From a virus (lineage: Duplodnaviria; Caudoviricetes), in IMG/VR virus record IMGVR_UViG_3300022074_005559: a DNA stretch of 64,000 bases, one strand, 5' to 3'. Within the stretch, counting starts at the first letter, position 1; every line of letters begins with the position of its first letter. The notes below the pieces were generated by a model that was given only the letters and a program-made list of their open reading frames with translations, was not told where the DNA came from and made no database searches. Both the position numbers and the translations under genes were made by a program. Shown here one piece after another: positions 15,642 to 37,282 of the stretch.

Positions 15642-16344
15642 AAGCCCGCTCCTGTACAAAAGTTCCGGCTGTCTTCTTATTTCCTTCTTCCCATCCATTG
15701 TTGGTGAGAAGTTGTTTTACATCGTTATTGAAACCCATGCTACCACAAATCATTACTTTGTCTTTGCTAGCAACACTGTCTGTCATCAATGTTCCCTGTT
15801 TGATCATTGTGGTAATACGTTGATTGCAACCAGTCCATTCTCTGTCCTGAGTTACAATAGGTGTGTAGTCAATGGGCAACTCTTGTAGAAACTCATGATA
15901 ACTGTGTAGCTCTGCAGGTGTTCTCACACTCCAAGCAACATGTATTTTATCAAAACTATCAAACGTTTCTGGATCACGCAGTAAACTTATAAAAGGCGCA
16001 ATGCCTGTGCCTGTTGCTAGCATCCATAAGTTGCCGCCCAGTTCTAAGTTTGCAAGTGTTAGTGTACCCGTAGGTTTGTTGCCTACTTCAATAGTATCTC
16101 CAACACGAATGTGTTGCAGTCTACTTGTAAGCGGCCCATCTTGAACTTTAATACTGTAGAACTCTATATAGTCATCATACGGACCGCTTGTGTAACTGTA
16201 CGCTCTATTAATGTCATCATCACCCATGCCAATCATAGTAAACTGTCCAGCAGTGTATCTATAACTTACAGGACGTTCAGTGCGTATTCTAAAAAGCGTA
16301 TCTGTGTAGTGCTCTACTTCAATAACTTTTAAAAAATCACTCAT
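15625..16344 (-). CDS. fpr: ferredoxin/flavodoxin-NADP+ reductase
   Basis: RAYS FAD motif, GPLTS, ATGTGIAPF, MICGS and terminal ERAF. Confidence 0.92.
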   Translation of the reverse strand: MSDFLKVIEVEHYTDTLFRIRTERPVSYRYTAGQFTMIGMGDDDINRAYSYTSGPYDDYIEFYSIKVQDGPLTSRLQHIRVGDTIEVGNKPTGTLTLANLELGGNLWMLATGTGIAPFISLLRDPETFDSFDKIHVAWSVRTPAELHSYHEFLQELPIDYTPIVTQDREWTGCNQRITTMIKQGTLMTDSVASKDKVMICGSMGFNNDVKQLLTNNGWEEGNKKTAGTFVQERAFVSRT

Positions 16345-16451
16345 TTGTATATAAAAGGATCCCGTTTTTTAAGTTCTTTTAAACGCTTGCGGTAGCGTAG
16401 TTCCATTTTAATTTTATTATAAATCTTTTTAAACCAGTTAACCACTGACAT
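16341..16451 (-). CDS. 36-aa basic peptide (absent from ORF track)
   Basis: Translated by hand as MSVVNWFKKIYNKIKMELRYRKRLKELKKRDPFIYK. ATGA-coupled to fpr, with a GAGG RBS upstream. Confidence 0.75.
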   Translation of the reverse strand: MSVVNWFKKIYNKIKMELRYRKRLKELKKRDPFIYK

Positions 16452-17037: not shown

Positions 17038-17513
17038 TATATTCTCTCCGTTGGTTTATTTTGCATTCTTAACATATAGTTGTTTACTACTTTACATAGT
17101 TCAGCATGTGTGTCATTGAACCATTCTGCTACATGATAGTCGCACAGTGGCGGTGCTTCAAACATTTTATTTGTTTGTTCAAATGTACTGCCTGGTGCGG
17201 CTGGTCCGTTCACACTTTGTGATTCTTTTACTGTGTCCATCCATACTGTAAAGTCTGGATCAAACTGTGCTCTTGCTGCTTCTGTTGGACATACAAAGTC
17301 TGCTACAGCAATTTTACCTGCCATTACAACTCCATCGCTAAGAAAGCGCATACGCAGTGCCTGTCTCATCCTGCCTTCTGGAGTAAAGTCCCAATCATCG
17401 TAATGGGTGCGTACTTTATCTGCATTGATCCATACAGCGCCTAATAGTTCTGCAAGTGGTTCGGCAAGTGTGCTTTTACCACTGCCTGGTAGCCCAAATA
17501 TTAATATTTTCAT
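17037..17513 (-). CDS. adenylylsulfate-kinase-like P-loop kinase
   Basis: GLPGSGKST, INADKVR, DWDFTPEGRMRQA, ADFVCP and FEAP. Confidence 0.8.
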   Translation of the reverse strand: MKILIFGLPGSGKSTLAEPLAELLGAVWINADKVRTHYDDWDFTPEGRMRQALRMRFLSDGVVMAGKIAVADFVCPTEAARAQFDPDFTVWMDTVKESQSVNGPAAPGSTFEQTNKMFEAPPLCDYHVAEWFNDTHAELCKVVNNYMLRMQNKPTERI

Positions 17514-18598
17514 GATAAACTCTCGATTTGTCTTTGTTCGTGATCTGCGTTACTCCAGTGATAATCAAAAGTTGCACTGACTGTGTCGCATTCGATCTTG
17601 TAAATGTCTAGGAAGTCGCCCAGTTTTTGCCAAATCTCTTCGGCAGTGTCTGTTCCAAAACTATTTAGCAAGTCAACTTGACCTATGTTTAAATAACCAC
17701 TGCTAAGGCTAGGATCGTCTGGATTAAAATCATTTGCTGTAAGCCAACTTCTAAATGCATCTATTTCATCTACAAACCAACTTTGTTGAGGATTGTAAGT
17801 AATGCTGTTGCCCCATTCAATGTCAAACTCTCCACTGTAATACTGCAAGTGTGTAATAGCTTCGCATACAGTAGCAGTAAGTTCTGGGGCATGCTCGTCT
17901 CTGAATACTTCAATAAGTGTTTTACCTATTTGACACCAATGCATGTACACACCGCCTAGCACACGGTCATAGCCATTTTCTACAAAGCCCAATCTGTGTT
18001 CATCTGTAAGTGTGCGTCTTGGGCAACGAAGAAATGTTGTGATCTGACTAGGGCGTACCCATTGCGGTGCTTGTATGATTTTACGTCTACTTAAACACAG
18101 TGTTTCCATTTCGTGGCAAATATTGTTTAACTGACGCACTGCATGACGTACACTTGGTGACATGTGTTCAGTGTATTCACTTGGATTTTCAACTGTGCCT
18201 TCCAGCACTTCAAAATGATTGTGCAGTTTATTCATTACTTCGTGTTTAACTTGGCGTCCTTTATTAAGCGGACTATCATCCATTCTGCCCACAGGATATT
18301 CATCGCCGAATGTAACCACGTCTGGGGCAAACCATTCTTCAATCATATAGTCTAAACCGCTTTGATTTATTGTAAAGATATGACGATTAAGTTCTTTGCA
18401 TAAAAAATCTAAACTGCGTTGTGTATAAGGAAAACCGTGAAAGCAATAGTTCTTTTCTAGGTGCAAACTTTTTAGCAGTACATCTTGCTTGAGTGCTATA
18501 ATCCAGTCTTGCGCAAGTTGATTGTCTGCCGGGTGTATATTATAATCCAACAGTTCTCCGGTTTTATAGTTACGCAGCACTACTTTAACAGATTTCAT
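17510..18598 (-). CDS. hypothetical protein (362 aa) inside the radical SAM block
   Basis: Long ORF with ATGA-type overlaps at both ends; no recognised motif. Confidence 0.8.
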   Translation of the reverse strand: MKSVKVVLRNYKTGELLDYNIHPADNQLAQDWIIALKQDVLLKSLHLEKNYCFHGFPYTQRSLDFLCKELNRHIFTINQSGLDYMIEEWFAPDVVTFGDEYPVGRMDDSPLNKGRQVKHEVMNKLHNHFEVLEGTVENPSEYTEHMSPSVRHAVRQLNNICHEMETLCLSRRKIIQAPQWVRPSQITTFLRCPRRTLTDEHRLGFVENGYDRVLGGVYMHWCQIGKTLIEVFRDEHAPELTATVCEAITHLQYYSGEFDIEWGNSITYNPQQSWFVDEIDAFRSWLTANDFNPDDPSLSSGYLNIGQVDLLNSFGTDTAEEIWQKLGDFLDIYKIECDTVSATFDYHWSNADHEQRQIESLS

Positions 18599-19862
18599 TC
18601 CACCATTCCTTCACTTTACTGTCCATGAGTGTATCCTCAAAGCGCATACCTCCTCTGAGATTATCCATTGCTTGCATACGCCACTTGCCACTTATACGAG
18701 CTTTGGCATATTCATCTGGATATTGTTCTTCAAAGACAGGACGCTCAAGTAAACTCTTAAGCATGTTTCTTATTGTAACATTGTCTACGCCAGTAGTCAA
18801 TAACAGTTGGTTTACTACAAAGTCTAAATGTTTGCGTGGAAGGAAAAGAGGACTCATTGCAATATCTGGAGTAAAGGCAAATGTTACTTTTGCTAATATG
18901 TCTGCATCGTACTTTTTTGCAAGGTCACAGATGAAAGGTATTTCCCAAAGCCCAGGCAGTGTTAGTGTAAAGTCAATGCGCATTTTTCTTCTGTCGTTGC
19001 CCGCATATTCTCTGCCTTGTGCAAAATATTCTTCCCACTGCACCCAGTCTAATCCTGTGCGGATGTATTCACCCACTGCACCTGTGCCATCTATACTAGC
19101 ACATACTTGCCAATCTCTTACATGTGCAAGTATGTCCTTATAAAGATTAACGCCTTTGTAATCAACGCGACTGAGATTAGTGTTATACCGTGCATAGAGA
19201 TTAGGACCATCGCCTAGTTCAACAATGCGGCGCATGTAACGCCAATGTTGCTCATACATAAGTGGCTCTCCGCCTACCCAGTATACTTCTTCAATACGAT
19301 GCTGCTCAACAGCATCACTAAACTCTTGCTCTACTACATCTGCTTGAAAAGTTTCAATAGCCTTTTTTACAGGCTTTTCCATCCAAGGTTCAACTTTGCC
19401 TTGCTTGCGAGCTTCTGTTTCCCAACTACTACTTAACATTGGACCGCACATACGACATTTAAAGTTGCACAAGTTACTGAAACGATAATCCCAACTAACA
19501 GGTTTCATTGTTGTGTACCCGTCCCAGTCTGTGTGTGCTACGACATCTTCGTATTTGTGTGAAAACAAATGATTGAAATAATCTCTGTATACGTCTTGGT
19601 TAAGCAGTCTTTTATCGCATACTTGACATGCATCTGGCACTTCGTTGCGCAACATCTGCATGCGTATATTGCGTATGTGTTCACCATTCCACCATTCATC
19701 CAGTGTTTGTGGTTTGTACTCGTTAGTGCCTTCTGCTGTGTCGATGTACTGTTTAAAGTTTTGTGCTGGCTCGCGGCTGGCGCAACACAGTCTGCGTTCA
19801 CTTTGTGGACTTAGATAAGTGTGCGTCCATGGTGCCATGCATAGGTTATCTGGTTTGTTCAT
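18585..19862 (-). CDS. radical SAM protein with N-terminal twitch-like domain (strand corrected to -)
   Basis: The reverse complement at 19862 reads ATGAACAAACCA, and TTA at 18585-18587 is the stop. Motifs CNFKCRMC, GGEPL and YNTN; N-terminal CMAPW...CC...CQVC. Confidence 0.93.
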   Translation of the reverse strand: MNKPDNLCMAPWTHTYLSPQSERRLCCASREPAQNFKQYIDTAEGTNEYKPQTLDEWWNGEHIRNIRMQMLRNEVPDACQVCDKRLLNQDVYRDYFNHLFSHKYEDVVAHTDWDGYTTMKPVSWDYRFSNLCNFKCRMCGPMLSSSWETEARKQGKVEPWMEKPVKKAIETFQADVVEQEFSDAVEQHRIEEVYWVGGEPLMYEQHWRYMRRIVELGDGPNLYARYNTNLSRVDYKGVNLYKDILAHVRDWQVCASIDGTGAVGEYIRTGLDWVQWEEYFAQGREYAGNDRRKMRIDFTLTLPGLWEIPFICDLAKKYDADILAKVTFAFTPDIAMSPLFLPRKHLDFVVNQLLLTTGVDNVTIRNMLKSLLERPVFEEQYPDEYAKARISGKWRMQAMDNLRGGMRFEDTLMDSKVKEWWNEIC

Positions 19863-20415
19863 GATAATACTCTGCTACTTGGTTGTGTATGTTTTGATCA
19901 TCAATATGAAAACAAGGAACAAACTTCAAACTATCTCCATAGTCCCAAAGATTATATTTACTTCTATGCGAATCATAATATGTAAAATATCGTTGTGTTA
20001 CTCCCCATTTAGGATGTTCGAATCCTCCTTGGTCAAACAAGAATGGAATACCACTTTGATCTAATCTAGACAACACACCTTCAATGATACATTTATTTTT
20101 GTATATTTCTCTATCTAAATCAAAAAACTCCGCTGTCCAACTTTTAATAATGTCTCGTTGTACACTGTTTAATCCGCTGGTGATAAGATTTTGTATTGTG
20201 TAAGGTCCCGATTCATGCTCGTAACGGCAACTGCTGGTAAACAAAACAATGACGAACTCCGCTCGTTGTTCTATAGCAATGTCTACTTGCTTACTAATCA
20301 TAACATTGCTAGCACATACTTCGCCAAGACTCGTACAGTCTAATAGTTCATGCCATGGAGTTATATCACTACGGGGATCACTGCTTGCAAAACTATCTCC
20401 ACATACATATATCAT
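19846..20415 (-). CDS. SGNH/GDSL-like protein
   Basis: N-terminal VCGDSF (block I), ASN and a C-terminal FH motif. Confidence 0.55.
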   Translation of the reverse strand: MIYVCGDSFASSDPRSDITPWHELLDCTSLGEVCASNVMISKQVDIAIEQRAEFVIVLFTSSCRYEHESGPYTIQNLITSGLNSVQRDIIKSWTAEFFDLDREIYKNKCIIEGVLSRLDQSGIPFLFDQGGFEHPKWGVTQRYFTYYDSHRSKYNLWDYGDSLKFVPCFHIDDQNIHNQVAEYYHEQTR

Positions 20416-21368
20416 GATTCTATAAACTCCATTAATGGATCAACAAGTTGTTCAACAAACAACTGTTTTACAATGCTGGGATTGTAAAAATGTTTTTTAT
20501 TATGTACAAGTATACGCTGAGTTTCACTATCTGTAAAGATAGTTTTGTCGGCAATGATATCTTTTACTACTGTGTGTATCATATCCAGTCTGACTTGTTC
20601 ATCAGATTCTGTGTCGTACCCTTCGTCGATAGCATGAGAGAAAGTTTCAAACCCTAGTCTCTGCATTTCAGCTAGTGTGCCTTGTTGTCCATAAACAACA
20701 TAAGCATGCTCGAATGCCATTGGTTTAAATATTTTTTCACTGACATGTATCCAGTTTCTACTGCGGTCTTGTACGCTTACATCTTTTACTGTGCTTTCAC
20801 TTACTAAACTAAAGCGTGTATCTCTATACCAGTCTGGGTTTATATGCCGTTGCCAGTTTTCATCGTAAGGTGCATCCACAGCATTTTGTAATGTTATGTC
20901 GTTGCCTACATAACTGTAAATATTATCATCTAGTACACTATAAAACTTTCTATATAAATCATTTCTCCATCCAGTGCGCATATGCATCAAACAAATAAAA
21001 TCTCGAGTTGGATTATGCTCAACGGGTTTATTATACCCTAGTGCAGTGTACCAAATACTTTCATGCCAACGTATAAAATCACGTGGACGTAATGTGTAAT
21101 CTGCCGCAAAGTCTAGATGTCCATCCCAGCAGTCCCAGCACTTGTCAATGATTAATCTCATGCCTCTGTCTCTGAGTGCAAGTTCGTCCTGTGCATTGCC
21201 AGTACAAAACTCATGATAATCAACGACTACCACTGTGTTTTTTACATCATAGTATTTTGCAGTGTCTAGTAGTTCAACGTTAAAATATTCAGCAAGATGA
21301 TCTTCCATAAACCAGTTACTGAATATAGTTTTGTCTTGACTTATTAGCAGTGTAGGTTTACAGTTCAT
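20412..21368 (-). CDS. GT-B-like putative glycosyltransferase (ET...EKxxK family)
   Basis: FSLVSES...VSEKIFKPM...LGFETFSHAIDEGYD; paralog of 13165..14166 and 30052..31014. Confidence 0.55.
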   Translation of the reverse strand: MNCKPTLLISQDKTIFSNWFMEDHLAEYFNVELLDTAKYYDVKNTVVVVDYHEFCTGNAQDELALRDRGMRLIIDKCWDCWDGHLDFAADYTLRPRDFIRWHESIWYTALGYNKPVEHNPTRDFICLMHMRTGWRNDLYRKFYSVLDDNIYSYVGNDITLQNAVDAPYDENWQRHINPDWYRDTRFSLVSESTVKDVSVQDRSRNWIHVSEKIFKPMAFEHAYVVYGQQGTLAEMQRLGFETFSHAIDEGYDTESDEQVRLDMIHTVVKDIIADKTIFTDSETQRILVHNKKHFYNPSIVKQLFVEQLVDPLMEFIES

Positions 21369-22539
21369 ATCCTATAACCTTTGCCATCTTAGCGTGGCTT
21401 TCTGCAAAGTTTTGATTGCGATATAAATCTGTTAGTCTTAGTTTTGTGTGCAACCCTTGTGCATCTTGCGTTCTGCTATGCATGACTAACTCTTTTATAC
21501 TGTGAATGTCTTGTGCATACTTTGCCCATTTCACTTGACATTTTTGCAAGTATAACATTAATACACTTTGCGCACTGTTGGGTGTGTTAACAATACTGAA
21601 CTCCCAAGGGTCATGCATTAGGTTAAAATGCACACTGTCAAAGTCCATGGTTTCTGCCCAAGTTAATACTTCGTCCATATAGTATACATTTTGTAGATTC
21701 CATGTTACACATAACTGTGTAGTAATAGGGTAACCTTGATCTCTAAGTTGATTTACTTTTTTAATATTATTATTTGCAGTACGCCACTTAGCACCGTAGC
21801 GTTCATATTCAAAACGTTTACCTGTGTTGTCCACACTGAATGCTATTTGCACATGTTTAAAATGTTGCCATATTGTAGGATCTTTTGGATATTGTGTTGC
21901 GTTTGTATTATAATGAATATCAATATCTTTTGCATAACCACGATCCACTGCACCTTGTAGTAAATCAAAATGCTGTTTAATCATCCATGGCTCACCACCA
22001 GTAAACTCAAAATACTTTATTTGCGGTAACAGTTCGTCCATGTTATCCCAGAATGTTTTACTCTTTCTGGGCCATTGTCCATCTTTTAACCATTTGTATG
22101 CACTGTGTTCTTTTGCAGGGATTTGATCAGCAACATAATCTATTTCTTCCTGTGCCCACTTACTACTGCTCCAACTACCACAGATACGACATTTAAGATT
22201 ACATATGTTGCCTAGTTTTAAATCTATAAACTGTAGTTCGTGTCCCGTTTCAACTGCGTCCCAGTCTACTTCTATGTGCTTGAACTTTTCCAACATATAC
22301 TGACGTTTGCTTTTCTTACCAGCACCTTCTTCACGCCAGCAGTTACGACACTGCCCTGGTTCTTTGTTGTCTCTAAATGCTGCACGGAGATTCTGCATAT
22401 ACTCGCTGTTAAAGCCGTCTTGCAGTGTGTGCGTTTTAAGATTCATATCCGGTATTTCATTAGTGGTTAAACAACAAGGACGCATTGTTCCCAATGGCGT
22501 TGTTTCAATGCTGATCCATGGCAGTATACATTTAGGCAT
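21358..22539 (-). CDS. radical SAM protein with N-terminal twitch-like domain
   Basis: CNLKCRIC, FTGGEP and YNTNAT; N-terminal CILPW...PCC...CRNC. Confidence 0.93.
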   Translation of the reverse strand: MPKCILPWISIETTPLGTMRPCCLTTNEIPDMNLKTHTLQDGFNSEYMQNLRAAFRDNKEPGQCRNCWREEGAGKKSKRQYMLEKFKHIEVDWDAVETGHELQFIDLKLGNICNLKCRICGSWSSSKWAQEEIDYVADQIPAKEHSAYKWLKDGQWPRKSKTFWDNMDELLPQIKYFEFTGGEPWMIKQHFDLLQGAVDRGYAKDIDIHYNTNATQYPKDPTIWQHFKHVQIAFSVDNTGKRFEYERYGAKWRTANNNIKKVNQLRDQGYPITTQLCVTWNLQNVYYMDEVLTWAETMDFDSVHFNLMHDPWEFSIVNTPNSAQSVLMLYLQKCQVKWAKYAQDIHSIKELVMHSRTQDAQGLHTKLRLTDLYRNQNFAESHAKMAKVIGYEL

Positions 22540-23848
22540 ATTTGCGCAACCTTTCTAGTTCTGGAAATACTGTCCAAAAACTTTCATCCCTGAACCCGTC
22601 CATTTCGTCATTTTTTTCTACAAACTGCGGTAATAAATGACTGTTGTCTGCGCTATTCATGAATGTCATTGCACTGCGAAATCCATTTGTTGCACGAGTA
22701 AGATAGTCACCTTCTGTAGCAATCCATGCAATGTGTTCGTTGTATAGTTGTTCAAGTTCTGCTTTCATGTCTGCAGGCAATATGTCTAATCTAAAACGAT
22801 CAGGGTCTTGCAGTATGTTAACATTAAAATCTTCTGCTTTAATCAATCCTAGCTCAACCCATTCTTTATGGAAGTCTAGTATATTGTAAGCATTCATAAC
22901 ACTTAGCGTAGCACTTATATAAAAGTCTACTGTAGGACAAACTTCAAGCATACGCCGGCGGTTCTCTACAACTTGATTCCAATCTGTGCCTTTGCGCATA
23001 AGTTCGCCACGAGCATGATTAGCATCTAGACTGGCACCAATACTTACTACATCAAACTTATTCCATAAGTCAAGTACGTCTTGTTGTTTAAACACTAGCT
23101 CTGTAAAGTTTGTGTTATAGTTAAGACGTACATCTGTTCTACCTCGTTCAATAAGTGCATTAAGTAGATTATAATGCTCTTTCATCATAAGTGGTTCGCC
23201 GCCCGCAAAATAAACATTTTCAATACTGTCTAGATGTGGCTGTAGTTGTTCCCACATATCCATTTCATAACGACCTGTATAACTTACGTTAGGATGATCT
23301 TTTGCTAGCCAACCATATTTTTTTGCTTCTTTTACCCAGTTACTACTAAAAATATCACCGCAGGTTCTGCAACTTAGATTACACAAGTTACTAAAGCGAA
23401 TGTCATAGTAAGTTAGTTTAAACTCATCGAGGCTTCCGTCTGTGTTTGTTGCATCTGCTTTTCCAATGTGATGTCCGTGATTTTTATTTGCACTGTAGCG
23501 CATGCTTACAAAACCGCTGCTTTCTTGTTCATAGCATTTAGTACACTGACTGCATGGTTTATCTTGCAGCATGTTTACACGCATCTGTTTAAGATCATCA
23601 CTGTTCCATATTTCTTCCATTGTGCTTTCTCTGAGTGTGCCCAATGGCTGATCCATTCGTGCAAGACAGCAAGGATATGCTTCGCCTGTAGGAAATGCAT
23701 GCAAATGTACCCAAGGTAGAATACAAAAACTTTCGCTTGTAAGTAATCTGTCTCGCTGTGTATCTGTTAAATCTTCGACATCTATATACACAGGTTTACG
23801 AGTATGATAGTCATAGTTTTTGTAGTAGTTTGCTATATCATCGGTCAT
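22532..23848 (-). CDS. radical SAM protein with N-terminal twitch-like domain (ATG 23848 by ATGA coupling)
   Basis: CNLSCRTC, FAGGEPL and YNTNFT; N-terminal FCILPW...PCC...CTKC. Confidence 0.93.
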   Translation of the reverse strand: MTDDIANYYKNYDYHTRKPVYIDVEDLTDTQRDRLLTSESFCILPWVHLHAFPTGEAYPCCLARMDQPLGTLRESTMEEIWNSDDLKQMRVNMLQDKPCSQCTKCYEQESSGFVSMRYSANKNHGHHIGKADATNTDGSLDEFKLTYYDIRFSNLCNLSCRTCGDIFSSNWVKEAKKYGWLAKDHPNVSYTGRYEMDMWEQLQPHLDSIENVYFAGGEPLMMKEHYNLLNALIERGRTDVRLNYNTNFTELVFKQQDVLDLWNKFDVVSIGASLDANHARGELMRKGTDWNQVVENRRRMLEVCPTVDFYISATLSVMNAYNILDFHKEWVELGLIKAEDFNVNILQDPDRFRLDILPADMKAELEQLYNEHIAWIATEGDYLTRATNGFRSAMTFMNSADNSHLLPQFVEKNDEMDGFRDESFWTVFPELERLRKYA

Positions 23849-25221
23849 AGGTTTTCGTACCATTCTGCTAGTTCCGGAAATGTAATCGGAAAGTTTTTAT
23901 TACGTCTTACATCATACTGCTGGTAAAACTTTTTAAAATCGTTATGTAGTTTAGGCATGTCAAAACCTTCACTGTGAGGCTTGTTTACTACTTGTAAATA
24001 CTCGATGAGTCTGTCCAGTTGTCCTAGTTCAAACTCGTGAAAGTCCAAGCCTGCGTTGCGTAGTTCTGTAAGCCGTTGTGCATGACGCTGTCGCTGCTCT
24101 GTTGGCAACACCAGTGCGCTTTGAAAACTAGGGAAACGCAGTATATTAAAACTCATTACACAGAATCTATTACCGCCATATTGTTCGCGCTTTGCCATAA
24201 TACGATGTACAAGCTCTGGCAGTGTTTCTAAACACAGTGCATTCACTGTCATCATACAGTGTGTATCAATGTCTGCTTCATGCAAGCGTTGCACATTTTC
24301 CCACCATTGTTTAAACACCATGCCATCTCTAATATATTCTGCGGCACCGTCTATTGCTTCTGCACTTGTATATACACCCAAACTAGGCAAACGTTCTCGC
24401 ACATTTACCAGTCTATCAATAAGTTCTGGCTTTGCTACTAGGTTACTGTTAATAGCAAGACTGGTTTGTGTCTTATCGCCATTTTGTTCAAACCATTCAA
24501 TAAGTCTCCATAAACTGTCACTCATTAATGGCTCGCCACCCGTAACACGCAACTGCCTCAGTGTTTTGTGTAGGTCAGTTTCCCACCATTTAAAAAACGC
24601 TTCTACATATGGATTTGTTTGATCCCGTTTAAACAGTTGACTGCTGTTGTGCGGATGTATAAAGTGACCTCTGCCATCACTGACAAGGTCTTTGTATGCA
24701 CCATTTTGTTTGAGGTCTTTTACCCAAGTACTCGAAAATGCAGGGTTGCAATAACTGCAAGCAAAGTTACATGTTCTGTCAAAGGCGATCTCAAGACTTC
24801 TGAGGTCAAAATCGTCTCTGTAATCTGATTCAAATGCATCTGTTAGTTCCTCATTAGTATATATCCAACTTTTGTAAACACGGTCACTGATATGCTCTGC
24901 TCCCATGTCCTCAATCTTCCAACAATATTCACAGCCTTGTGGTCGTTCTCCGCACTGCATCTGATGTCTTTGTTGTTTTTTCTGCGGAGTGTTGTGCAGT
25001 AGTTTAGGATTTTTTGTAACTTCTACTGGATCAATCTTATGTGGCAGAGGATGGTGACAACTTGTAGTCATGCCACTGCCTAACCACACTGTGGCATTAT
25101 ACCATTTAGCACCACAAAAACTAGCACTGCGAGTGTCTAGGTGTTCACGTTTAAAATCATGCGGCGGTAGTGTATTTTGCAGTACTGCTTCTAAGTGATT
25201 ATTTGGATTGCCTTCGCTCAT
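23845..25221 (-). CDS. radical SAM protein with N-terminal Cys-rich domain (second subfamily)
   Basis: CNFACSYC, VTGGEPL and INSNL; N-terminal FCGAKW...SCHHP...CEYC. Confidence 0.93.
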   Translation of the reverse strand: MSEGNPNNHLEAVLQNTLPPHDFKREHLDTRSASFCGAKWYNATVWLGSGMTTSCHHPLPHKIDPVEVTKNPKLLHNTPQKKQQRHQMQCGERPQGCEYCWKIEDMGAEHISDRVYKSWIYTNEELTDAFESDYRDDFDLRSLEIAFDRTCNFACSYCNPAFSSTWVKDLKQNGAYKDLVSDGRGHFIHPHNSSQLFKRDQTNPYVEAFFKWWETDLHKTLRQLRVTGGEPLMSDSLWRLIEWFEQNGDKTQTSLAINSNLVAKPELIDRLVNVRERLPSLGVYTSAEAIDGAAEYIRDGMVFKQWWENVQRLHEADIDTHCMMTVNALCLETLPELVHRIMAKREQYGGNRFCVMSFNILRFPSFQSALVLPTEQRQRHAQRLTELRNAGLDFHEFELGQLDRLIEYLQVVNKPHSEGFDMPKLHNDFKKFYQQYDVRRNKNFPITFPELAEWYENL

Positions 25222-25526
25222 GACAGTTTCCTTTTCAATATTTGTTTGACATCATCTTCTGTAAACTTGATATGCCATGTGCCATTAAAAGACACAAAAT
25301 CAACATTTGTTAAGTGTGCATAATCATGATTGTCTGTTGCCATTGTTGTGTATTCAAACAGTTCAGGCAGTGTTAAATCTTTGTACCTAATAGTGTTTAT
25401 TTTTATATAACTATTAGGATCTGTGCGATAGTCTTTGCCATAAAAGTGTAGTTTTAGTTCTGTAGGCGATATATTTTCACGTTTTATATAAAATGCACCC
25501 ACTGTTTCAAACTTAAAATCTATCAT
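25218..25526 (-). CDS. hypothetical protein (102 aa)
   Basis: ATGA overlaps at both ends. Confidence 0.65.
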   Translation of the reverse strand: MIDFKFETVGAFYIKRENISPTELKLHFYGKDYRTDPNSYIKINTIRYKDLTLPELFEYTTMATDNHDYAHLTNVDFVSFNGTWHIKFTEDDVKQILKRKLS

Positions 25527-26158
25527 TTAAATCTCGTTAATATTAGAACACTACTGCGAGGATACTTACCACTAAAGTTAGCACTGACATGAAAACGTTT
25601 TCTGGGCCAAGTCATTGCTGTACCTAGCCTCCAACAGTGTATACGGTCCACTGTAAAGCCTGCTAGTTTATCATAGTCTAAGTGCGTAAGTAATCCATAA
25701 TCAGTTCGGTCAAATGGTGTGTCGTCTAGTCCGTATTCTTCTCTGGTAGTCTGTTTATAAGTTGTAATACCTTTACTGCCCAATCCTGTCTCAGCATTAA
25801 ATGTGATAGCTCTGTCACTGCTCTGTTTGAACACCAGTGTATAATAAGCCTCTTCGCCTGTGTACCTAATAGGTATTAGATAACTGTTTGCAATATCGTC
25901 ATCTTTATCATGATCCAAATAGCCGTCGCTGTGTATACCGCCTGCACCATAATCATGATTGATGTTTACTGTGGTAATCTCTTCATTTGCAGGCAGTTTT
26001 GCTTGCAGTTGTGCTAGTTTATGTGCAAAGAAAGGCTGCGCATAATGACACATGGTTTGGTAGCGCAGTCCGTTGTCTCGAGTTTCCGGTAGCACAGTGT
26101 CATACCATAAAAACCAATCGCATTCTTCCTGCGTAAAAAAGTTGTCAATCTGTTTCAT
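25523..26158 (-). CDS. putative 2-oxoglutarate/Fe(II) dioxygenase (double-stranded beta-helix fold)
   Basis: IDNFFTQEEC start, HxD in GIHSDG, distal His in RFHVS, then R..VLI. Confidence 0.6.
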   Translation of the reverse strand: MKQIDNFFTQEECDWFLWYDTVLPETRDNGLRYQTMCHYAQPFFAHKLAQLQAKLPANEEITTVNINHDYGAGGIHSDGYLDHDKDDDIANSYLIPIRYTGEEAYYTLVFKQSSDRAITFNAETGLGSKGITTYKQTTREEYGLDDTPFDRTDYGLLTHLDYDKLAGFTVDRIHCWRLGTAMTWPRKRFHVSANFSGKYPRSSVLILTRFK

Positions 26159-26657
26159 TAGCAAAATATTCTTTTATTTGTGTTAGCACTGTGCGTGTAC
26201 TTTCCTGTCCTTCTTGTGTGTCTTGGCGTACACCCAGTCTACGTTGTATATCCAGTAGCAAAGGATTATCGAACTTCCAAACTATTGTTCCGTTATGACC
26301 AAGGTATGTATTGCCTTGTTGTGTGAAAGGTTCGTCCCAGGGTGCAACAATAGGATACTGTGTACATTCCCATAATATGTTTTTAAGGTCAATGTTGTTA
26401 ACATGTATATCAGTAACTTCTATAAACTTATCATGTTCATTATACATGTTTTTTCCATAATGTTCAACCGTTAACTTGCTTGTGCCATCAGGTTTAGGTA
26501 ACACTATAAACTCTACACTGTCTCCGTCTGCTTTAAAGTTTGCCACTTGTTCACCATCCCATAACACTCTGCACAAGGGCCAGCCATGAAAAGGATCGTG
26601 TTCACTATGAGTGTAGGATATCTTTAAAGTGATAGGTATTTTGTTTAATACGCTCAT
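26145..26657 (-). CDS. hypothetical protein (170 aa)
   Basis: Co-oriented, overlapping ORF; no motif recognised. Confidence 0.7.
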   Translation of the reverse strand: MSVLNKIPITLKISYTHSEHDPFHGWPLCRVLWDGEQVANFKADGDSVEFIVLPKPDGTSKLTVEHYGKNMYNEHDKFIEVTDIHVNNIDLKNILWECTQYPIVAPWDEPFTQQGNTYLGHNGTIVWKFDNPLLLDIQRRLGVRQDTQEGQESTRTVLTQIKEYFANETD

Positions 26658-28104
26658 AACTTGCTTTAAGTCTTTTTAGTTGATGGTCGCCATTCCATAC
26701 AGTGTAGCCCAGGTCCATGAGCAACTCTTGTAGGTCTATTCGTCGATTGATGCGTTCAAGCAGTGTTAGTTTAGGATTGTCTTTACTGGTCCAGTCTAGT
26801 CCAAATAATTCTGTGTCATCTTCTTGTGTAGGACTAAGTCCGTAGTGTATACTGTCTTGGTGCAATGGACTGCCCTCATCAATACTTAGTGTGCCTCCGA
26901 GGTTAACACCAAATATAGTTCCGTCCATTGCATAGCCTTGGTATTTTGTAAACTGTTGCATAGTTTCTAAATGATGATCTTCAGTCTCTGTAGGGTATCC
27001 AACAATCATTAAGAAGTAACAGTTAACATTATTTAACCTAAACTGCTCCAAGGTGTAATCCAAGTCAGCATTGGTAAAGCCTTTGTTCATGTCTATGCGT
27101 ATTTGTTCGCTAAGACTTTCCACACCCATTGCCAGACCATTCATGCCACTTTGTGCGGCAAAACGATAATCCTCAGGTGTGAGTTGTTTTGCTGTTCGTA
27201 CAATCCATTGCCCGCCCCAACTAAAAAACTTGTCTGGTAGATTGTTTGCACGATAGTAGTCTACCAGGCTGCGACTAAGGTCACGGAAACTTTTTAGACT
27301 ACCATTAATCAAACTGTCTGTAAAAAAGAAATCAGTAACACCATGTTTTTCATAATGGTGTATCATTTCCTGTGCTACATTGTCACCGTCACGGTATGTA
27401 TACTTTTTCCAAAACGCATGTATATCACAAAAACTACAGCGTCTTACACAGCCGCGACTTGTGGTTACTGGCAACTGTGTGCGTCCAATAGCATAATGAT
27501 ATTTGTAATCTATAACATCATCGTAGTCTGGAAACGCAACACTGTTTAGATCCTCAATCTGTACATAGTTGTCATTGTTTACACCTGGCCCTGCATTATC
27601 TACAAGTATGTCTAATAGTGCATACTCTCCTTCGCCTCTTACATAGTAGTCCACAAGTCCGACATTTTTTAGTGCATTACCAAAGTCATTGGTCTGTGTA
27701 GCAATACCTGTGGTGCTCAGACCTGCACCCCCTATGATAATCTTGCCTTTATAGTGCGGACGAAGAAGTTTACATAGTTCTTGCGTGGCACGTTGACATT
27801 CAAATGTAAACACACTGATGCCAACAAAGCGAGGATTAACATCTAGCACATAGTCTACTACCTCTGCATACCATGTGTCAATGATTGTTTTACAACGGTC
27901 GTTTAGTTCGCTGTTAGGAATAGTAAAATAGTTTGTGATCGTTTCAAAGTCATCTTCGTCTTTAATGCTGTCCAGCAGTTCAAAGTTTGTGTCTTTTACA
28001 GTGCATGTAAAGCCGTTTTCTTGCACGACACCTTTTAGCAAACTAGTGCCTGCAGGAGGGTACACTAAACTAATGCGTGGTACATTAAGTAGCAATAAGT
28101 CCAT
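26605..28104 (-). CDS. cobalamin (B12)-binding-domain radical SAM protein (start 28104)
   Basis: N-terminal PPAG..LLKG, FVGISVF and KIIIGG (B12-binding Rossmann-like), TSRGCVRRCSFC, FTDSLIN, GVESLS and FLMIVGYPTET. Confidence 0.9.
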   Translation of the reverse strand: MDLLLLNVPRISLVYPPAGTSLLKGVVQENGFTCTVKDTNFELLDSIKDEDDFETITNYFTIPNSELNDRCKTIIDTWYAEVVDYVLDVNPRFVGISVFTFECQRATQELCKLLRPHYKGKIIIGGAGLSTTGIATQTNDFGNALKNVGLVDYYVRGEGEYALLDILVDNAGPGVNNDNYVQIEDLNSVAFPDYDDVIDYKYHYAIGRTQLPVTTSRGCVRRCSFCDIHAFWKKYTYRDGDNVAQEMIHHYEKHGVTDFFFTDSLINGSLKSFRDLSRSLVDYYRANNLPDKFFSWGGQWIVRTAKQLTPEDYRFAAQSGMNGLAMGVESLSEQIRIDMNKGFTNADLDYTLEQFRLNNVNCYFLMIVGYPTETEDHHLETMQQFTKYQGYAMDGTIFGVNLGGTLSIDEGSPLHQDSIHYGLSPTQEDDTELFGLDWTSKDNPKLTLLERINRRIDLQELLMDLGYTVWNGDHQLKRLKASYERIKQNTYHFKDILHS

Positions 28105-28723
28105 TTGCGTAGTATTCCCAACTGTGTGTATCTTTGTAGTCCCAATGACATCTATGCCACTGTGTATATATTTGTTTTGCACGAATGTAGTCTATGTCTA
28201 CAAGCCATCTTGTGTCATGATAAAAATGATCAAAGTGCCCTTGGTATAAACTGTCTGTATAAATCACATCAACGCCACTAGTCTCCATTGCGCACTTGCG
28301 ATCATACATTATTTCGTGCATGTTAAGTATGTTTTCTTCTCGTGTACTGCCGCCAAAATCCAGTATGTTACCTGCTTTTTCTATGTAAGCTCTGACTTGC
28401 CAATCAAATGCCATGCGACTTTTTGGTAGCACTGCTACACAATGTCCTAGTGTTTGTAGTTTTTTGAAGTCTTTGGTGTTGTGGAAAGCACTGTGGTTTA
28501 CATACAAGTTTGACTCTAAACTGTCTATGTTTACACTATCTGCTACTATGTTTATTCTTGTTGTGCGTTCCTTTTCTATCCAACTGTTAAACGTACCATC
28601 ATACAGTGTGTTTACCAAGTTATAATCGAAAGGACAGGTGTAGCGATTGTCTAGTAAGAAAAGGTTTTTAACTAGATTTGTTCCTGCTCCTAAATCACCT
28701 AACAGTATTAGACTATCTTGCAT
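28085..28723 (-). CDS. putative sulfotransferase-like / P-loop protein
   Basis: N-terminal LGDLGAGTNLVKN resembles a 5'-phosphosulfate-binding loop; weak evidence. Confidence 0.45.
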   Translation of the reverse strand: MQDSLILLGDLGAGTNLVKNLFLLDNRYTCPFDYNLVNTLYDGTFNSWIEKERTTRINIVADSVNIDSLESNLYVNHSAFHNTKDFKKLQTLGHCVAVLPKSRMAFDWQVRAYIEKAGNILDFGGSTREENILNMHEIMYDRKCAMETSGVDVIYTDSLYQGHFDHFYHDTRWLVDIDYIRAKQIYTQWHRCHWDYKDTHSWEYYANGLIAT

Positions 28724-30068
28724 GATACTTGCACTGGTTCCAAAAACTTGCCATCTCCGGAAAGGTTGCTAAAAAGTCTGTGCCTCTCCGACGATCGTGT
28801 TCATTAAAGAATCTATAAAAATCAGCACGTTTGCGTTCTACGTCTGAAGTGCCTTGTAACATCCAATCTAAATCACGTTGCATTTTTTGAACTTCATAGT
28901 CTTTAAAGCCATGCATTTCGTCTAAGTTATCTTGCATATATCTAATACAATCCTGCAAAACTAACTGATATTCTCCAGGCAGTATTTGCATGCTTTGCCA
29001 TTCTGGAGTATACAATAGTGGAGTATCAAACCATACACGTTGATATGTATCAGTGTAAGTTTTACGCAAGTATACAATATGCTCTAGCAACCGTTGTAAA
29101 CCAAGTATGCTGAGATTGTTCATTGTAATGATAAATGTAAGACTACTGCGTCTTGGGATGTCTCGAATAAACTCTTCACATCTATTTATCGCCAGGTCAA
29201 AGTCCAGTCCATGTCGGATATATTCTGCTTGCGCACCCCAAGTGTCTAGACTTACAAACTGCATGAAGTGTTCAATGTTTTCTCCATCACATAGTCGCTG
29301 TACATAAGTTTTGTACTTGTTCCACACTGTGGGATCAACACTGAAGTTACTAGTGACGTTTAAATGCAAGTCTTGCTTGGGATTGTCTAACACATAATCA
29401 AACACACGATATGTGTTAGGATCCATAGTAGGCTCGCCGCCTGTCATTCTAAAGTGTTGTAACGATGGGTAAAGGTCGGGCCACCATTTCCAGAACGCTT
29501 CTCGGTAGGGGTTGTCTTCTCTGTTAGGTATAGCCCTGCGTTCTCCGGAAAAGTGTTCTGGGGCATTGTGCGGTACACTTGTGGGCCATGCTCCGTGTTC
29601 GTTGGATTCACGAGTCCACATGCTGCTAAACTGAGGACTGCAATAACTGCACTTAAGATTACATACATTATTAAAGTTTACCTCCATGTAACTTGGGTTA
29701 ATATCTGCTAAAGGACGATTTATTATCTCATCAAAACTATTCATAGCCCATGGCTCACCACTGCGATAATGTCTATCGCTGATATTGCCTTGACTTTCTA
29801 TATTCCAACAATACTTGCAATCCGTACACTTGATGCCTGCCATCATTTCTGCACGACTTGCTTTTTTGTGTGCAGTGTTGTGCAGTGCGCTTGGATTAGT
29901 TGCTAATGGTTCAACTGGTATTCGATGCAGTGGCGGATGATAGCAACTGTTTGTGTGTCCGGTTGTAAGATGCAAACTAACTTGTTTCCACTTAGCCAAA
30001 CAAAAACTATCGCTGACTGTTGCTAGTTTATCTTTGGCTGCTAGTGCATCTTTATAGTAATCGCTCAA
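28713..30068 (-). CDS. radical SAM protein with N-terminal Cys-rich domain (second subfamily; TTG start)
   Basis: CNLKCSYC, MTGGEP and VTSNF; N-terminal FCLAKW...SCYHP...CKYC; paralog of 23845..25221. Confidence 0.92.
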   Translation of the reverse strand: MSDYYKDALAAKDKLATVSDSFCLAKWKQVSLHLTTGHTNSCYHPPLHRIPVEPLATNPSALHNTAHKKASRAEMMAGIKCTDCKYCWNIESQGNISDRHYRSGEPWAMNSFDEIINRPLADINPSYMEVNFNNVCNLKCSYCSPQFSSMWTRESNEHGAWPTSVPHNAPEHFSGERRAIPNREDNPYREAFWKWWPDLYPSLQHFRMTGGEPTMDPNTYRVFDYVLDNPKQDLHLNVTSNFSVDPTVWNKYKTYVQRLCDGENIEHFMQFVSLDTWGAQAEYIRHGLDFDLAINRCEEFIRDIPRRSSLTFIITMNNLSILGLQRLLEHIVYLRKTYTDTYQRVWFDTPLLYTPEWQSMQILPGEYQLVLQDCIRYMQDNLDEMHGFKDYEVQKMQRDLDWMLQGTSDVERKRADFYRFFNEHDRRRGTDFLATFPEMASFWNQCKYHAR

Positions 30069-31014
30069 AATCTTTATCCATCATTTCATTTAGTAGTGTT
30101 TGATTTGCTTGTAATCTATCTTTAAGAGTATTACAGTCCGTGTCACTTTGCATAAACTTTTTCAGACTTGCATACATCATGTCAATCCTAATATAGTCTG
30201 ATTGTGTGTCATAACTCTTATCCAATATGTCATCGAAAATATCAAAGCCCATATCTTTAAGACGTTGCTCACAGTCTTTACTGCCTGCTATCATAAACAG
30301 TCTTCCATATTGAATAGGTCTCCACGTTTTTTCTGTGATATACATTGTATTGTCTGTGGTTACAGTTTCGTATGCAAGTTCAATACTAACAGTTTTATAT
30401 ACACTAGTCCAAAAATCTACATCATACTGATTTCCTAAGTTGATAGGATGTTTTCCATATGTTTTTTGAAAATCGCTGTAAGGAAGATCTTCTAATATAT
30501 TTTTATACTCATTGATATATTCTAATGCAAACTCCTGAACAGGTGTAACTTTGTATGCCATTGGGTCATGATGAAAAGTAGTTACACTTCTATCCTTGAA
30601 TAAAAAGTTTTTGTGTTTAAGATACCCGTACATTCTATTATTATCAGCTCTGCCTAACAGTTGACAATAAGTATGTTGTTTTGGAAAACCGATATCTGCC
30701 GGTATTTTTAACCCTTTCATTGCAACCAATGCCTCATTCCAGCCTATATATTTGCATTCAAATATATCACTTTTAGCAAGCATATCATTTGTAATAAAAC
30801 TAATAGTTTCATACGGAATGCTTAAATGATCTGCAATATTTTTTACGGCTAATTCTAGTCCGTTGTGCGTTATATCAAACCCTTCATTATTCAAACTTAA
30901 ACATATTTTTTGGTCAATGCTGTTATGGAAATGTTTTGCTATTTCACATGCTAATATTTCAATGTCGAGGGTAGAAGCGGTAGTGCAATAAGGAGTTACA
31001 TCAATAGTTACCAT
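30052..31014 (-). CDS. GT-B-like putative glycosyltransferase (ET...EKxxR family)
   Basis: IELAYET...YITEKTWRPI...MGFDIFDDILDKSYD. Confidence 0.55.
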   Translation of the reverse strand: MVTIDVTPYCTTASTLDIEILACEIAKHFHNSIDQKICLSLNNEGFDITHNGLELAVKNIADHLSIPYETISFITNDMLAKSDIFECKYIGWNEALVAMKGLKIPADIGFPKQHTYCQLLGRADNNRMYGYLKHKNFLFKDRSVTTFHHDPMAYKVTPVQEFALEYINEYKNILEDLPYSDFQKTYGKHPINLGNQYDVDFWTSVYKTVSIELAYETVTTDNTMYITEKTWRPIQYGRLFMIAGSKDCEQRLKDMGFDIFDDILDKSYDTQSDYIRIDMMYASLKKFMQSDTDCNTLKDRLQANQTLLNEMMDKDFERLL

Positions 31015-31919
31015 CCTTCATGCCTTCTAATCATGTCTATTTCCAAACTCATGGGATCACTAGGACAGTAGGTTTCAGCATAGTATTTTTTGAAAAACTT
31101 ACTACTGTAAGTATCTAAGTTTAACATAGGCAAACCTAATCTACTTAGTAGCGCACCGTTTATTTCCGGCATTTGTAAAACATCAAACTCGTTGAAAATG
31201 CGTTCTAAGTTTTCGAACCATTGTACTTCTGTATGATCCCAGTCTGTAAGCATGGTCATGTATGTACCAAGTCTTGCTCCGTTTATAGCAAACTCGCCAT
31301 GCTCTGCATCTCTGCCTACATTATGCCAAATGCTCAGTCTATCGAAGTTTGATTTATGCACCATATCCTCAAACTCTTGCAAGGTAGGTTTAGTGCCATT
31401 GCGTAAGCACATCTTTACACCTTCACGAAAGCCAGCTCTAAATGCATGCTTGTTGCTGCCATTTGGATAGGTTGTACTGTAAACATTATTCATTGCTAGG
31501 TACTTAGGATCGTAGCAAAACTCTACTGCCGTTTCATCACTACCGTCGCTGTGTTCGTGTGTGCGCATGTTGTATACAAAGTCTTTTGTCCAGCAACTTA
31601 ATCCTCCATTGCCGTACATAAGTCCGTTGATGTCATTTACTGCTTTCCAACGGAATACACAATCCTCATGCTTGTCCTCAATGTCTAGTGTAACATCAAA
31701 AAACTCTGAGAAGGGCATGTTGTCGCCATCAATGAGAATAAAGCGTTCTGTGTCACTTGCATCTGCTGCCGCTTTATGAGCCGCATCACTGCCTTCTACG
31801 CCATCAACACGCTTTGCCCAAGGCACCATGTTTTGGATCTTTACCCAAAACTCTTCTTTTTTTGGCTCATCGTAACTTAGATAAACACAGTCTAAGTCTG
31901 CTACATCAACTTTTAACAT
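31008..31919 (-). CDS. GT-A-like glycosyltransferase
   Basis: DCVYLSYDEP, VDGVEGSDAAH, ILIDGDN (DxD), NGLMYGNGG and FRAGFREGVKM. Confidence 0.7.
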   Translation of the reverse strand: MLKVDVADLDCVYLSYDEPKKEEFWVKIQNMVPWAKRVDGVEGSDAAHKAAADASDTERFILIDGDNMPFSEFFDVTLDIEDKHEDCVFRWKAVNDINGLMYGNGGLSCWTKDFVYNMRTHEHSDGSDETAVEFCYDPKYLAMNNVYSTTYPNGSNKHAFRAGFREGVKMCLRNGTKPTLQEFEDMVHKSNFDRLSIWHNVGRDAEHGEFAINGARLGTYMTMLTDWDHTEVQWFENLERIFNEFDVLQMPEINGALLSRLGLPMLNLDTYSSKFFKKYYAETYCPSDPMSLEIDMIRRHEGW

Positions 31920-32199
31920 ATGGATTTCTTTCTAGTTCCTGTTGCGTTAGGTTCCAAGTACGTTGCTTGGGGGGAGTGAATACAAGTTCATTTTCTATAA
32001 CAGTGTAGTCTTGTAGTTTTTGATAGCAAGCATCATATTGTTCTTGTGTGATTTCAATGTGTTGCCCTTGTGCAATCTTGTTTATTGTTATGTTAAGTAT
32101 ACTACCATCTTCGGCAAAATACAATCTATACACAGTGCTCGTGCGTGTAGTATCTATAACCTGTGCAACATCAAAAAATGTGCTATAGTCCTTGCTCAT
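31906..32199 (-). CDS. hypothetical protein (97 aa)
   Basis: Co-oriented overlapping ORF. Confidence 0.7.
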   Translation of the reverse strand: MSKDYSTFFDVAQVIDTTRTSTVYRLYFAEDGSILNITINKIAQGQHIEITQEQYDACYQKLQDYTVIENELVFTPPKQRTWNLTQQELERNPYVKS

Positions 32200-35086: not shown

Positions 35087-35101
35087 TTATTATTTCTCCG
35101 A

Positions 35102-36556: not shown

Positions 36557-36588
36557 TTCTTATTTGCTCCGCATATATTCGTTAGTAT

Positions 36589-36595
36589 TATTTAT
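36589..36595 (-). promoter_or_regulatory. late promoter ATAAATA
   Basis: Minus-strand GATAAATA in the gap, about 33 nt upstream of ATG 36556. Confidence 0.55.
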
Positions 36596-36616
36596 CCAAA
36601 TGATTAACTATGTATA

Positions 36617-37279: not shown

Positions 37280-37282
37280 AGT

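Follow-up and report, generated by a model that had tools for sequence, protein, structure and literature searches.

Five N-terminal twitch radical SAM paralogs in a conserved phage module of predicted sugar-modifying enzymes

Introduction

Why does a tailed phage carry five related radical S-adenosylmethionine (SAM) enzymes in a single array, and on what do they act? The question is raised by IMG/VR virus record IMGVR_UViG_3300022074_005559 (Caudoviricetes), a stretch of 64,000 nt that is referred to as the window. The five genes, all on the minus strand, are named A1, A2 and A3 (subfamily A) and B1 and B2 (subfamily B). An earlier note on this DNA, made from the letters alone, had described them as a tandem expansion of radical SAM proteins with an N-terminal twitch domain and had proposed that they edit sugars. 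The analysis presented here places the five proteins in a large catalogued family, traces them as an old set with a fixed gene order, and weighs a role in glycan tailoring against its rivals.

Results

Family membership and cysteine architecture

Membership was tested with the full-length hidden Markov model (HMM) NF033640 of NCBIfam (N_Twi_rSAM, "twitch domain-containing radical SAM protein"), which has 398 positions and a curated cut-off of 170 bits. All five proteins match this model nearly end to end with 301-395 bits (Table 1), which confirms the five radical SAM open reading frames (ORFs) with N-terminal cysteines that the earlier note had listed. In an alignment of the paralogs, numbered after A3, seven cysteines are invariant: C47, C66, C107 and C110 in the N-terminal part, and C161/C165/C168, which form the CxxxCxxC triad. 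The auxiliary cysteines thus stand ahead of the SAM domain in all five proteins, as the note had observed. Downstream of the triad a GGEP motif for SAM binding (G221-G222-E223-P224) is likewise invariant, and A3 and B2 each harbor one or two cysteines beyond the invariant set. Pfam recognizes a SPASM-type domain in front of Radical_SAM in A1 (residues 8-83), A2 (4-68) and A3 (47-110, E 1.5e-11); B1 and B2 show Radical_SAM only, with no separate Pfam match to SPASM.

In the AlphaFold2 model of A3, calculated from 27 sequences (mean pLDDT 92), residues 49-137 fold into a beta-hairpin and helices. A partial barrel of six strands comes next, and the C-terminal region is helical. The characteristics of the radical SAM superfamily are present, namely CxxxCxxC, GGEP, the partial barrel and a resemblance to radical SAM folds at Z 10-12.6. 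The seven auxiliary cysteines of two-cluster SPASM proteins were not found in the alignment. As only four auxiliary cysteines are invariant, a single auxiliary cluster of the twitch-like kind is predicted rather than the two of SPASM proteins. A C-terminal twitch domain of the BtrN type is also absent: the last 80 residues are helical and lack conserved cysteines, and the auxiliary cysteine domain is N-terminal. Judged by sequence, the five proteins are new members of a catalogued family without assigned chemistry.

Two old subfamilies in a fixed order

Identity between the paralogs is low, with 27-30% within subfamily A, 31% within subfamily B and 22-26% between the two. Related loci were collected from IMG/VR with A3 as query (41 loci) and from metagenomes (six loci). 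Each paralog of the window has its own orthologue there at approximately 50-80% identity, and the order B2-B1-A3-A2-A1 is constant in more than 40 loci; the B2 orthologues, for example, are 55-80% identical and occupy the same position. Every related locus that spans the region contains five to ten copies according to the family HMM. In a phylogeny of the family (FastTree, 248 leaves) the individual orthologue clades were recovered with supports of 64 to 100 (Table 1). Subfamily A is a large clade of 131 leaves and subfamily B another of 101, and both also hold many unrelated representatives. Among the A leaves, the A-type motif CxxPW is present in 111, CC in 124 and CxxxCRxC in 120, and these motifs are nearly absent from B. 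Among the B leaves, 91 contain the B-type motif CxAKW, 81 SCxHP and 70 CxxxCSYC, none of which was seen in A. The motifs by which the earlier note had defined two subfamilies are present as quoted, and because they track the two clades, both subfamilies are real and general.

The notion of a tandem expansion, taken as a recent event, did not hold. Since the paralogs share only 22-31% identity and each has its own orthologue clade, with the gene order kept in over 40 viral contigs, the array is an ancient diversification that was handed down as a fixed set. The variable part among the relatives consists of insertions, such as the B12 cassette between B2 and B1 and the genes o189 and o318 between A2 and A1. 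That five paralogs in one phage are unusual is true only in relation to cultured phages, given the five to ten copies of the related contigs. NF033640 itself is a bioinformatic subfamily, with which the window proteins have the permuted order in common, a cysteine-rich twitch-like domain followed by the CxxxCxxC core. What the window adds to it is a fixed set of five paralogs that spans both main clades and lies in a phage module.

Comparison with characterized radical SAM enzymes

The folds nearest to the A3 model are SkfB (Z 12.6), CteB (12.5), BlsE (12.4), anSME (11.5), MoaA (11.4), SuiB (11.3) and DesII (10.8). Searches with Foldseek and VIA were mutually consistent and retrieved generic radical SAM cores only, and an Atlas search yielded only viral relatives of the same family. 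The N-terminal domain alone had no match among PDB sequences. Weak similarity, below cut-off, was seen to the models of viperin, QueE and MoaA.

Two groups of characterized enzymes can be compared with the window proteins. BtrN (2-deoxy-scyllo-inosamine dehydrogenase), DesII, BlsE and AprD4 are alike in combining an auxiliary four-cysteine domain with a partial-barrel core in the context of a sugar pathway, but none of them resembles the window proteins significantly in sequence. BtrN has its auxiliary domain at the C-terminus, whereas the window enzymes have it at the N-terminus. The SPASM maturases SkfB, CteB, SuiB and anSME are top structural neighbors (Z 11.3-12.6), and Pfam assigns the N-terminal domain of A1-A3 to SPASM. 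They differ in their seven-cysteine, two-cluster set as opposed to the four cysteines found here. In addition, the window proteins scanned contain no RiPP recognition element (RRE; RiPP, ribosomally synthesized and post-translationally modified peptide), and no precursor peptide tracks the radical SAM genes.

Gene content of the module

The genes that surround the array, together with their supporting evidence, are listed in Table 1. In the relatives the order begins with two tail fibre genes (484 and 300 aa), o126, o266, o274, in some cases o97, and o303, and continues with B2-B1-A3-A2-A1. A1 lies directly upstream of o362, the gene for a small peptide (PEP) and the carbamoyltransferase gene; these are sometimes followed by a P-loop kinase and a small nucleotidyltransferase, and the module ends with orthologues of q442.

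Table 1. Genes of the array and its surroundings, with positions in the window.
Feature	Coordinates	Strand	Evidence
A1, N-twitch radical SAM, subfamily A, 425 aa	18585..19862	-	NF033640 E 1.2e-89, 301 bits; clade support 100
A2, N-twitch radical SAM, subfamily A, 393 aa	21358..22539	-	NF033640 E 2.7e-93, 313 bits; clade support 99
A3, N-twitch radical SAM, subfamily A, 443 aa	22532..23863	-	NF033640 E 3.1e-118, 395 bits; clade support 64
B1, N-twitch radical SAM, subfamily B, 458 aa	23845..25221	-	NF033640 E 8e-90, 302 bits; clade support 85
B2, N-twitch radical SAM, subfamily B, 451 aa	28713..30068	-	NF033640 E 1.9e-93, 314 bits; clade support 98
Tail-fibre-like genes, upstream, same orientation	34184..39232	-	PHROG tail fibre families; syntenic with the module
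o266, weak paralog of o274, probably also GT-A	32989..33789	-	BLASTP E 0.001 across DxD-like region; conserved synteny
o274, GT8-like glycosyltransferase	32183..33007	-	18-orthologue profile matches glycogenin-1, E 1.4e-8, nucleotide-binding half
o303, GT2-like (GT-A) glycosyltransferase	31008..31919	-	Invariant DGDN; Atlas neighbors named "Glycosyltransferase 2-like"
o320, paralog of o318 and q333	30052-31014	-	Pairwise similarity
Accessory cassette between B2 and B1: o212, B12-binding radical SAM, o170, o213, o102	25218-28723	-	
B12-binding radical SAM, 525 aa	26605..28182	-	Pfam B12-binding and Radical_SAM; PhpK-family E 1.2e-26, below cut-off
o189 and o318, insertion between A2 and A1; o189 probably SGNH/GDSL-like	19846..21368	-	
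o318	20412-21368	-	Paralog of q333 and o320
o362, conserved orphan between A1 and the peptide	17510..18598	-	17 orthologues, 53% mean column identity
APS-kinase-like P-loop kinase	17037-17513	-	Accessory pair
Small HxGH nucleotidyltransferase, 137 aa	16624-17037	-	Accessory pair
PEP, 36-aa basic peptide	16341..16451	-	Invariant C-terminus KRDPFIYK
Fpr-like ferredoxin/flavodoxin-NADP reductase, 239 aa	15625..16344	-	Pfam FAD_binding_6, NAD_binding_1; NF008178 E 1.3e-36, below cut-off
NodU/CmcH-type carbamoyltransferase	14157..15698	-	Carbam_trans_N E 6e-37, Carbam_trans_C E 1.9e-49; NodU model E 9e-36, below cut-off
q442 and q333, distal module end	11900..14166 (q333 13165-14166)	-	q442 C-terminal half paralogous to o303, E 4.8e-11
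SDR 4,6-dehydratase/epimerase-like, PseC/LegC-like aminotransferase and UDP-GlcNAc 3-dehydrogenase-like genes, converging on the module	9061..11958	+	

The context points consistently to sugars. The most conserved gene of the module outside the radical SAM enzymes is the putative glycosyltransferase gene o303, with a mean column identity of 64% over 19 orthologues, and homologues of it recur in three distant arrays (L009, L041 and L049). A fusion of radical SAM and GT2 was identified in P0203, the locus of which has GT2 genes dispersed among about eight radical SAM genes. A minimal distant cassette (L067) encodes a GT7 and ConA-like protein, a B-type radical SAM enzyme, the peptide, an SGNH-like protein, the carbamoyltransferase, a sulfotransferase, an epimerase for nucleoside diphosphate (NDP) sugars and RmlC, which by its annotated genes is a sugar setting again. 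The reductase of the module resembles the ferredoxin/flavodoxin-NADP reductase of the E. coli type; it sits in the same operon as the radical SAM genes, which bears out the mention of a phage FNR in the earlier note. Some relatives additionally encode an FeS_assembly_P protein.

The hydrophobicity of the 31 proteins encoded at 11900-39232 was also inspected. A score resembling that of a transmembrane segment was reached in none of them (0/31), and family scans of the module proteins recognized no polyprenyl-phosphate transferase, flippase, polymerase or exporter.

Several genes are accessory or vary among the relatives. The B12-binding protein is a sixth radical SAM enzyme inside the array and is unrelated to the five; as its five-gene cassette was found among the relatives in L010, L011 and L014 only, it appears to be a mobile accessory unit within the module. 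The genes q333, o318 and o320 are dispersed paralogs with a common C-terminal block of approximately 90 aa (pairwise E 1e-8 to 1e-10), the copies of which differ in number and position among the relatives. The kinase and the nucleotidyltransferase occur in about half of the relatives, where they travel together; the pair precedes the peptide in some relatives and follows the carbamoyltransferase in others. Its role may be the activation of sulfate or nucleotides for the glycan.

Upstream of the tail-fibre genes, a single ORF of 4,410 aa with FG-GAP repeats and a weak CBM5/12 match occupies positions 39267-52499 on the minus strand. Three ORFs without a Pfam family (1196, 968 and 973 aa) come after it. 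These ORFs probably encode giant fibre or baseplate proteins.

In L009 (JGI 3300048881 contig, 28.9 kb), about eight radical SAM genes of the family are interleaved with four or five GT2 genes. One of its genes encodes a radical SAM-GT2 fusion of 794 aa, and a homologue of o303 is located there as well.

The conserved peptide and the carbamoyltransferase

The 36-aa peptide PEP is a gene in its own right. In the window its ATG is preceded by GAGGA at a distance of 5 nt, and its stop codon overlaps the start of the reductase gene. Orthologues of 33-36 aa were detected in nearly all related loci, in the Ralstonia jumbo phage RsoM2USA and on 11 contigs of metagenome-assembled genomes (MAGs); examples are located at about 17243 in L001, L003:15272-15373 and L067:2999-3103. 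The residues KRDPFIYK end 117 of 121 peptide sequences, and the nine preceding residues are almost as constant. Across the last 17 codons, 1998 synonymous codon differences compare with 658 non-synonymous ones. This excess, together with the conservation, indicates that PEP is a protein-coding gene under purifying selection. The peptide has a net charge of +10 and an amphipathic N-terminal half.

In the loci collected with A3, PEP and the carbamoyltransferase are found together in all 47 loci that bear the carbamoyltransferase, and neither is present in 12 radical SAM arrays. A second set was gathered independently of the radical SAM genes by scanning IMG/VR with the DNA pattern of the peptide alone, which yielded at least 120 contigs. 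Among the matches listed in this set, the carbamoyltransferase lies within 2.5 kb downstream of the peptide in 62 of 69 judged cases and an N-twitch radical SAM gene within 3 kb upstream in 24 of 76; for whole loci the figures are 99/120 and 34/120. The PEP stop codon and the carbamoyltransferase ATG overlap by 4 nt in 53 of 101 pairs among these matches, and 13 further pairs are at most 30 nt apart. In many relatives one SGNH/GDSL-like gene is inserted between the two (DUF6071 in RsoM2USA). The gene o189 is its probable counterpart in the window, as it matches the profile of the SGNH-like genes of the relatives with E 1e-5. Genome contigs gave 17 matches to the DNA pattern, which is about the number expected by chance. 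Eleven of them proved real on inspection; all of these are on MAG contigs and, where the flanks suffice, are accompanied by genes of the phage module. PEP is absent beside the more distant Nol-like carbamoyltransferases of the cultured cyanophages and pelagiphages S-SSM7, P-SSM2, HTVC008M and C48C1.

These counts show that PEP is a companion of this clade of carbamoyltransferases and not a signature substrate of the radical SAM enzymes. It could be a subunit, a substrate, a carrier or a coupled or arrest-type leader peptide of the carbamoyltransferase. Because PEP neighbors SPASM-like enzymes, it resembled at first sight a RiPP precursor of the radical SAM proteins; this was rejected as the main interpretation, since the peptide-anchored scan showed that PEP tracks the carbamoyltransferase. 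A precursor is expected to co-occur with its maturase, which PEP does not do, given the radical SAM gene upstream in 24 of 76 cases and the 12 arrays without the peptide. No RRE or PqqD domain was found in any radical SAM protein or neighbor scanned with Pfam, NCBIfam and PHROGs.

The orphan o362

In most related loci that cover the position, o362 follows A1 and precedes the peptide. It has no relative in Pfam, PHROG or Atlas and no sequence match in the PDB. Its AlphaFold2 model (pLDDT 86) found no match in the PDB by Foldseek and only unnamed or dubiously named clusters in the AlphaFold DB. VIA-align returned many chains of the cyclophilin fold at Z 7-8.6, which lies in the "middling" range of that tool, with a discontinuous barrel and a four-helix insert. 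This modeled resemblance to cyclophilins is a lead only and is not taken as an assignment.

Occurrence in metagenomes and cultured phages

The family is abundant. At E <= 1e-3 a profile of the five paralogs retrieved 19,818 cluster representatives, of which 5,660 remain at E <= 1e-30. A3 alone has 7,173 metagenome homologues at E <= 1e-10, the best 120 of which (of 7,173) are 51-81% identical. No protein of 14 model prokaryotes scores above the NF033640 cut-off. The stretch 14157-23863 of the window recurs as the same genotype in 17 runs of seawater or viral metagenomes from about nine studies, where recurrence was defined as at least 95% of the sampled words of this stretch. In three marine RNA libraries, short contigs matched the genes of the carbamoyltransferase, the kinase, o318, A2 and A3 exactly.

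Many of the top family matches (P0121-P0152) are proteins of 800-1,400 aa that contain two or three N-twitch radical SAM stretches. This points either to occasional fusion of neighboring paralogs or to gene calls that ran across gene boundaries.

Among cultured phages, megablast with the 11.5-kb array found no match. Vibrio phage K566 has five substantial matches of the NF033640 type, two of them above cut-off and four clustered, but these copies share just 23-25% identity with the window paralogs. RsoM2USA has two family matches, and RsoM2USA_202 is 48% identical to B1. The full module of five paralogs is present in neither K566/K567 nor RsoM2USA, and their radical SAM-type genes are annotated as hypothetical or generic radical SAM proteins. 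Marine T4-like phages (pelagimyophages and cyanomyophages) are similar to the window in having a variable host-recognition region with tail-fibre genes, GT8 genes and radical SAM cassettes, for which modification of the O-chain was suggested (PMC7029224). That paper merely mentions the cassettes, and names neither the family nor a set of five paralogs, a conserved order or the partner genes. Apart from this brief mention, the literature search found nothing under the name of the family, on the motif of the peptide or on SPASM radical SAM enzymes of phages. The conserved phage module of five paralogs with its set of partners is thus not described in the literature searched.

RsoM2USA (L001), a soil jumbo phage, harbors a reduced cassette at 125-130 kb with three DUF6071 (SGNH-like) paralogs, one B1-like radical SAM gene, the peptide and the carbamoyltransferase. 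The peptide is unannotated in this phage, and the genes are labeled hypothetical.

Discussion

On what, then, do the five enzymes act? The interpretation preferred here, held with middling confidence, is that they constitute the radical tailoring stage for a carbamoylated glycan that is assembled in the cytoplasm on a soluble acceptor, most likely the fibre proteins encoded upstream. At CxxxCxxC each enzyme would bind the [4Fe-4S] cluster that cleaves SAM, the four N-terminal cysteines would ligate a single auxiliary [4Fe-4S] cluster, and both clusters would be reduced via the phage Fpr-like reductase and a flavodoxin or ferredoxin of the host. The 5'-deoxyadenosyl radical is predicted to take a hydrogen from a sugar, be it an NDP-sugar or a unit within the growing oligosaccharide; transfer of an electron to the auxiliary cluster could then lead to oxidation, epimerization, dehydration or C-C chemistry, with a different step for each paralog. 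That five orthologues were kept in a fixed order across this widespread lineage of uncultured marine phages argues for a distinct and required step for each. Two GT8-like and one or two GT2-like transferases would build the glycan from NDP-amino-sugars made by the phage, and the NodU-type enzyme would O-carbamoylate it. The acceptor would be soluble, because the module encodes no membrane protein, flippase or polymerase, and would most likely be a structural protein of the phage such as the adjacent tail fibres.

The battery of sugar-editing enzymes envisaged in the earlier note is therefore retained in part. Its sugar context is borne out by the GT8-like and GT2-like genes, the carbamoyltransferase, the NDP-amino-sugar genes and the radical SAM-GT2 fusion, but searches by sequence and fold do not separate sugar-acting from peptide-acting relatives. 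Several observations weigh against the tailoring of a glycan. No close solved structure exists, as the family profile gave only weak PDB matches (SkfB E 5e-6, TigE 1e-5) confined to the generic core, and in the fold ranking the peptide maturases SkfB, CteB and SuiB are level with the sugar enzymes BlsE and DesII. The assignment to sugars is drawn from the gene neighborhood, because no sequence or structure search yields a reaction. No NF033640 member has a tested reaction, and no paper naming the family was found in the literature search. Furthermore, o362, o126, o97, q333, o318 and o320 belong to no family recognizable with Pfam or PHROG. The contigs from RNA libraries are a weak and thin sign of transcription and possibly reflect carry-over of DNA.

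The same chemistry could be directed at a glycan of the host envelope during infection, either the lipopolysaccharide (LPS) O-chain or the capsule, and serve superinfection exclusion. GT8 enzymes are typical of LPS synthesis, which agrees with this view. However, none of the 31 proteins has a membrane segment, no polyprenyl-phosphate transferase, flippase, polymerase or exporter was recognized in the family scans, and the module lies behind tail-fibre genes in every relative. The pelagimyophage cluster provides a precedent, since radical SAM cassettes and GT8 genes occur there with a suggested modification of the O-chain, and a role of the superinfection-exclusion type was proposed for its glycosyltransferases (PMC7029224). 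Taken together, a target on the host envelope is unlikely. Fibre genes always adjoin the array, and SkfB, CteB and SuiB are among the nearest solved folds, so the radical SAM enzymes might modify the adjacent tail-fibre or giant fibre proteins directly, by epimerization, crosslinks or hydroxylation-like reactions, while the glycosyltransferases act separately. Yet the proteins scanned contain no RRE or other peptide-recognition domain, the fold scores give peptide enzymes no edge over BlsE or DesII, and the family is also found in GT2 arrays, and fused to GT2, away from fibre genes; direct modification of protein is accordingly judged improbable.

The peptide gives rise to two further interpretations. 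The radical SAM enzymes, the glycosyltransferases and the carbamoyltransferase might process the C-terminal residues of PEP in a RiPP-like or cofactor-like pathway, in the manner of mycofactocin or PQQ. Mycofactocin is the peptide-derived product of a radical SAM-SPASM enzyme and is subsequently glycosylated by a GT2 enzyme, and the module does contain a real and strongly conserved peptide gene, the start of which is overlapped by the B-type radical SAM gene in L067. This pathway is nevertheless regarded as very improbable, because the peptide follows the carbamoyltransferase rather than the radical SAM genes among the matches listed, 12 arrays do without it and no RRE domain was found. In a peptide-anchored glycoconjugate, by comparison, the DPFIYK terminus would be the acceptor: its tyrosine, for example, would be O-glycosylated by the glycogenin-like GT8 enzyme, the glycan rebuilt by the five radical SAM enzymes and then carbamoylated. 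This is given a small chance. A weaker variant holds that PEP serves the carbamoyltransferase specifically, whether as its substrate, as a carrier or as a ribosome-arrest leader. If it exists, the peptide-anchored product would be a glycopeptide or a cofactor-like molecule, made by the phage and without a described counterpart. A substrate that is neither glycan nor protein, such as a nucleotide, a DNA base, a lipid or another small metabolite, is hinted at by the weak similarity to the viperin, QueE and MoaA models. As these matches are confined to the generic radical SAM core and the conserved partners of the array are glycosyltransferases, such a substrate seems quite unlikely.

Tailoring of a glycan on the phage fibres thus remains the preferred interpretation. 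NF033640 is a very large family in which no member has a known reaction and which typically occurs in multi-copy arrays, even as tandem fusions. The module described here is a compact and conserved set with defined partners, namely three or four glycosyltransferases, a carbamoyltransferase, a peptide and a reductase, and it belongs to a phage genotype that recurs nearly unchanged in metagenomes; it therefore offers a practical entry point to the chemistry of the family. If the preferred interpretation is correct, abundant marine phages would decorate their fibres with sugars tailored by radical chemistry, a matter of relevance to host recognition and to oxygen-sensitive enzymology during infections in the surface ocean.

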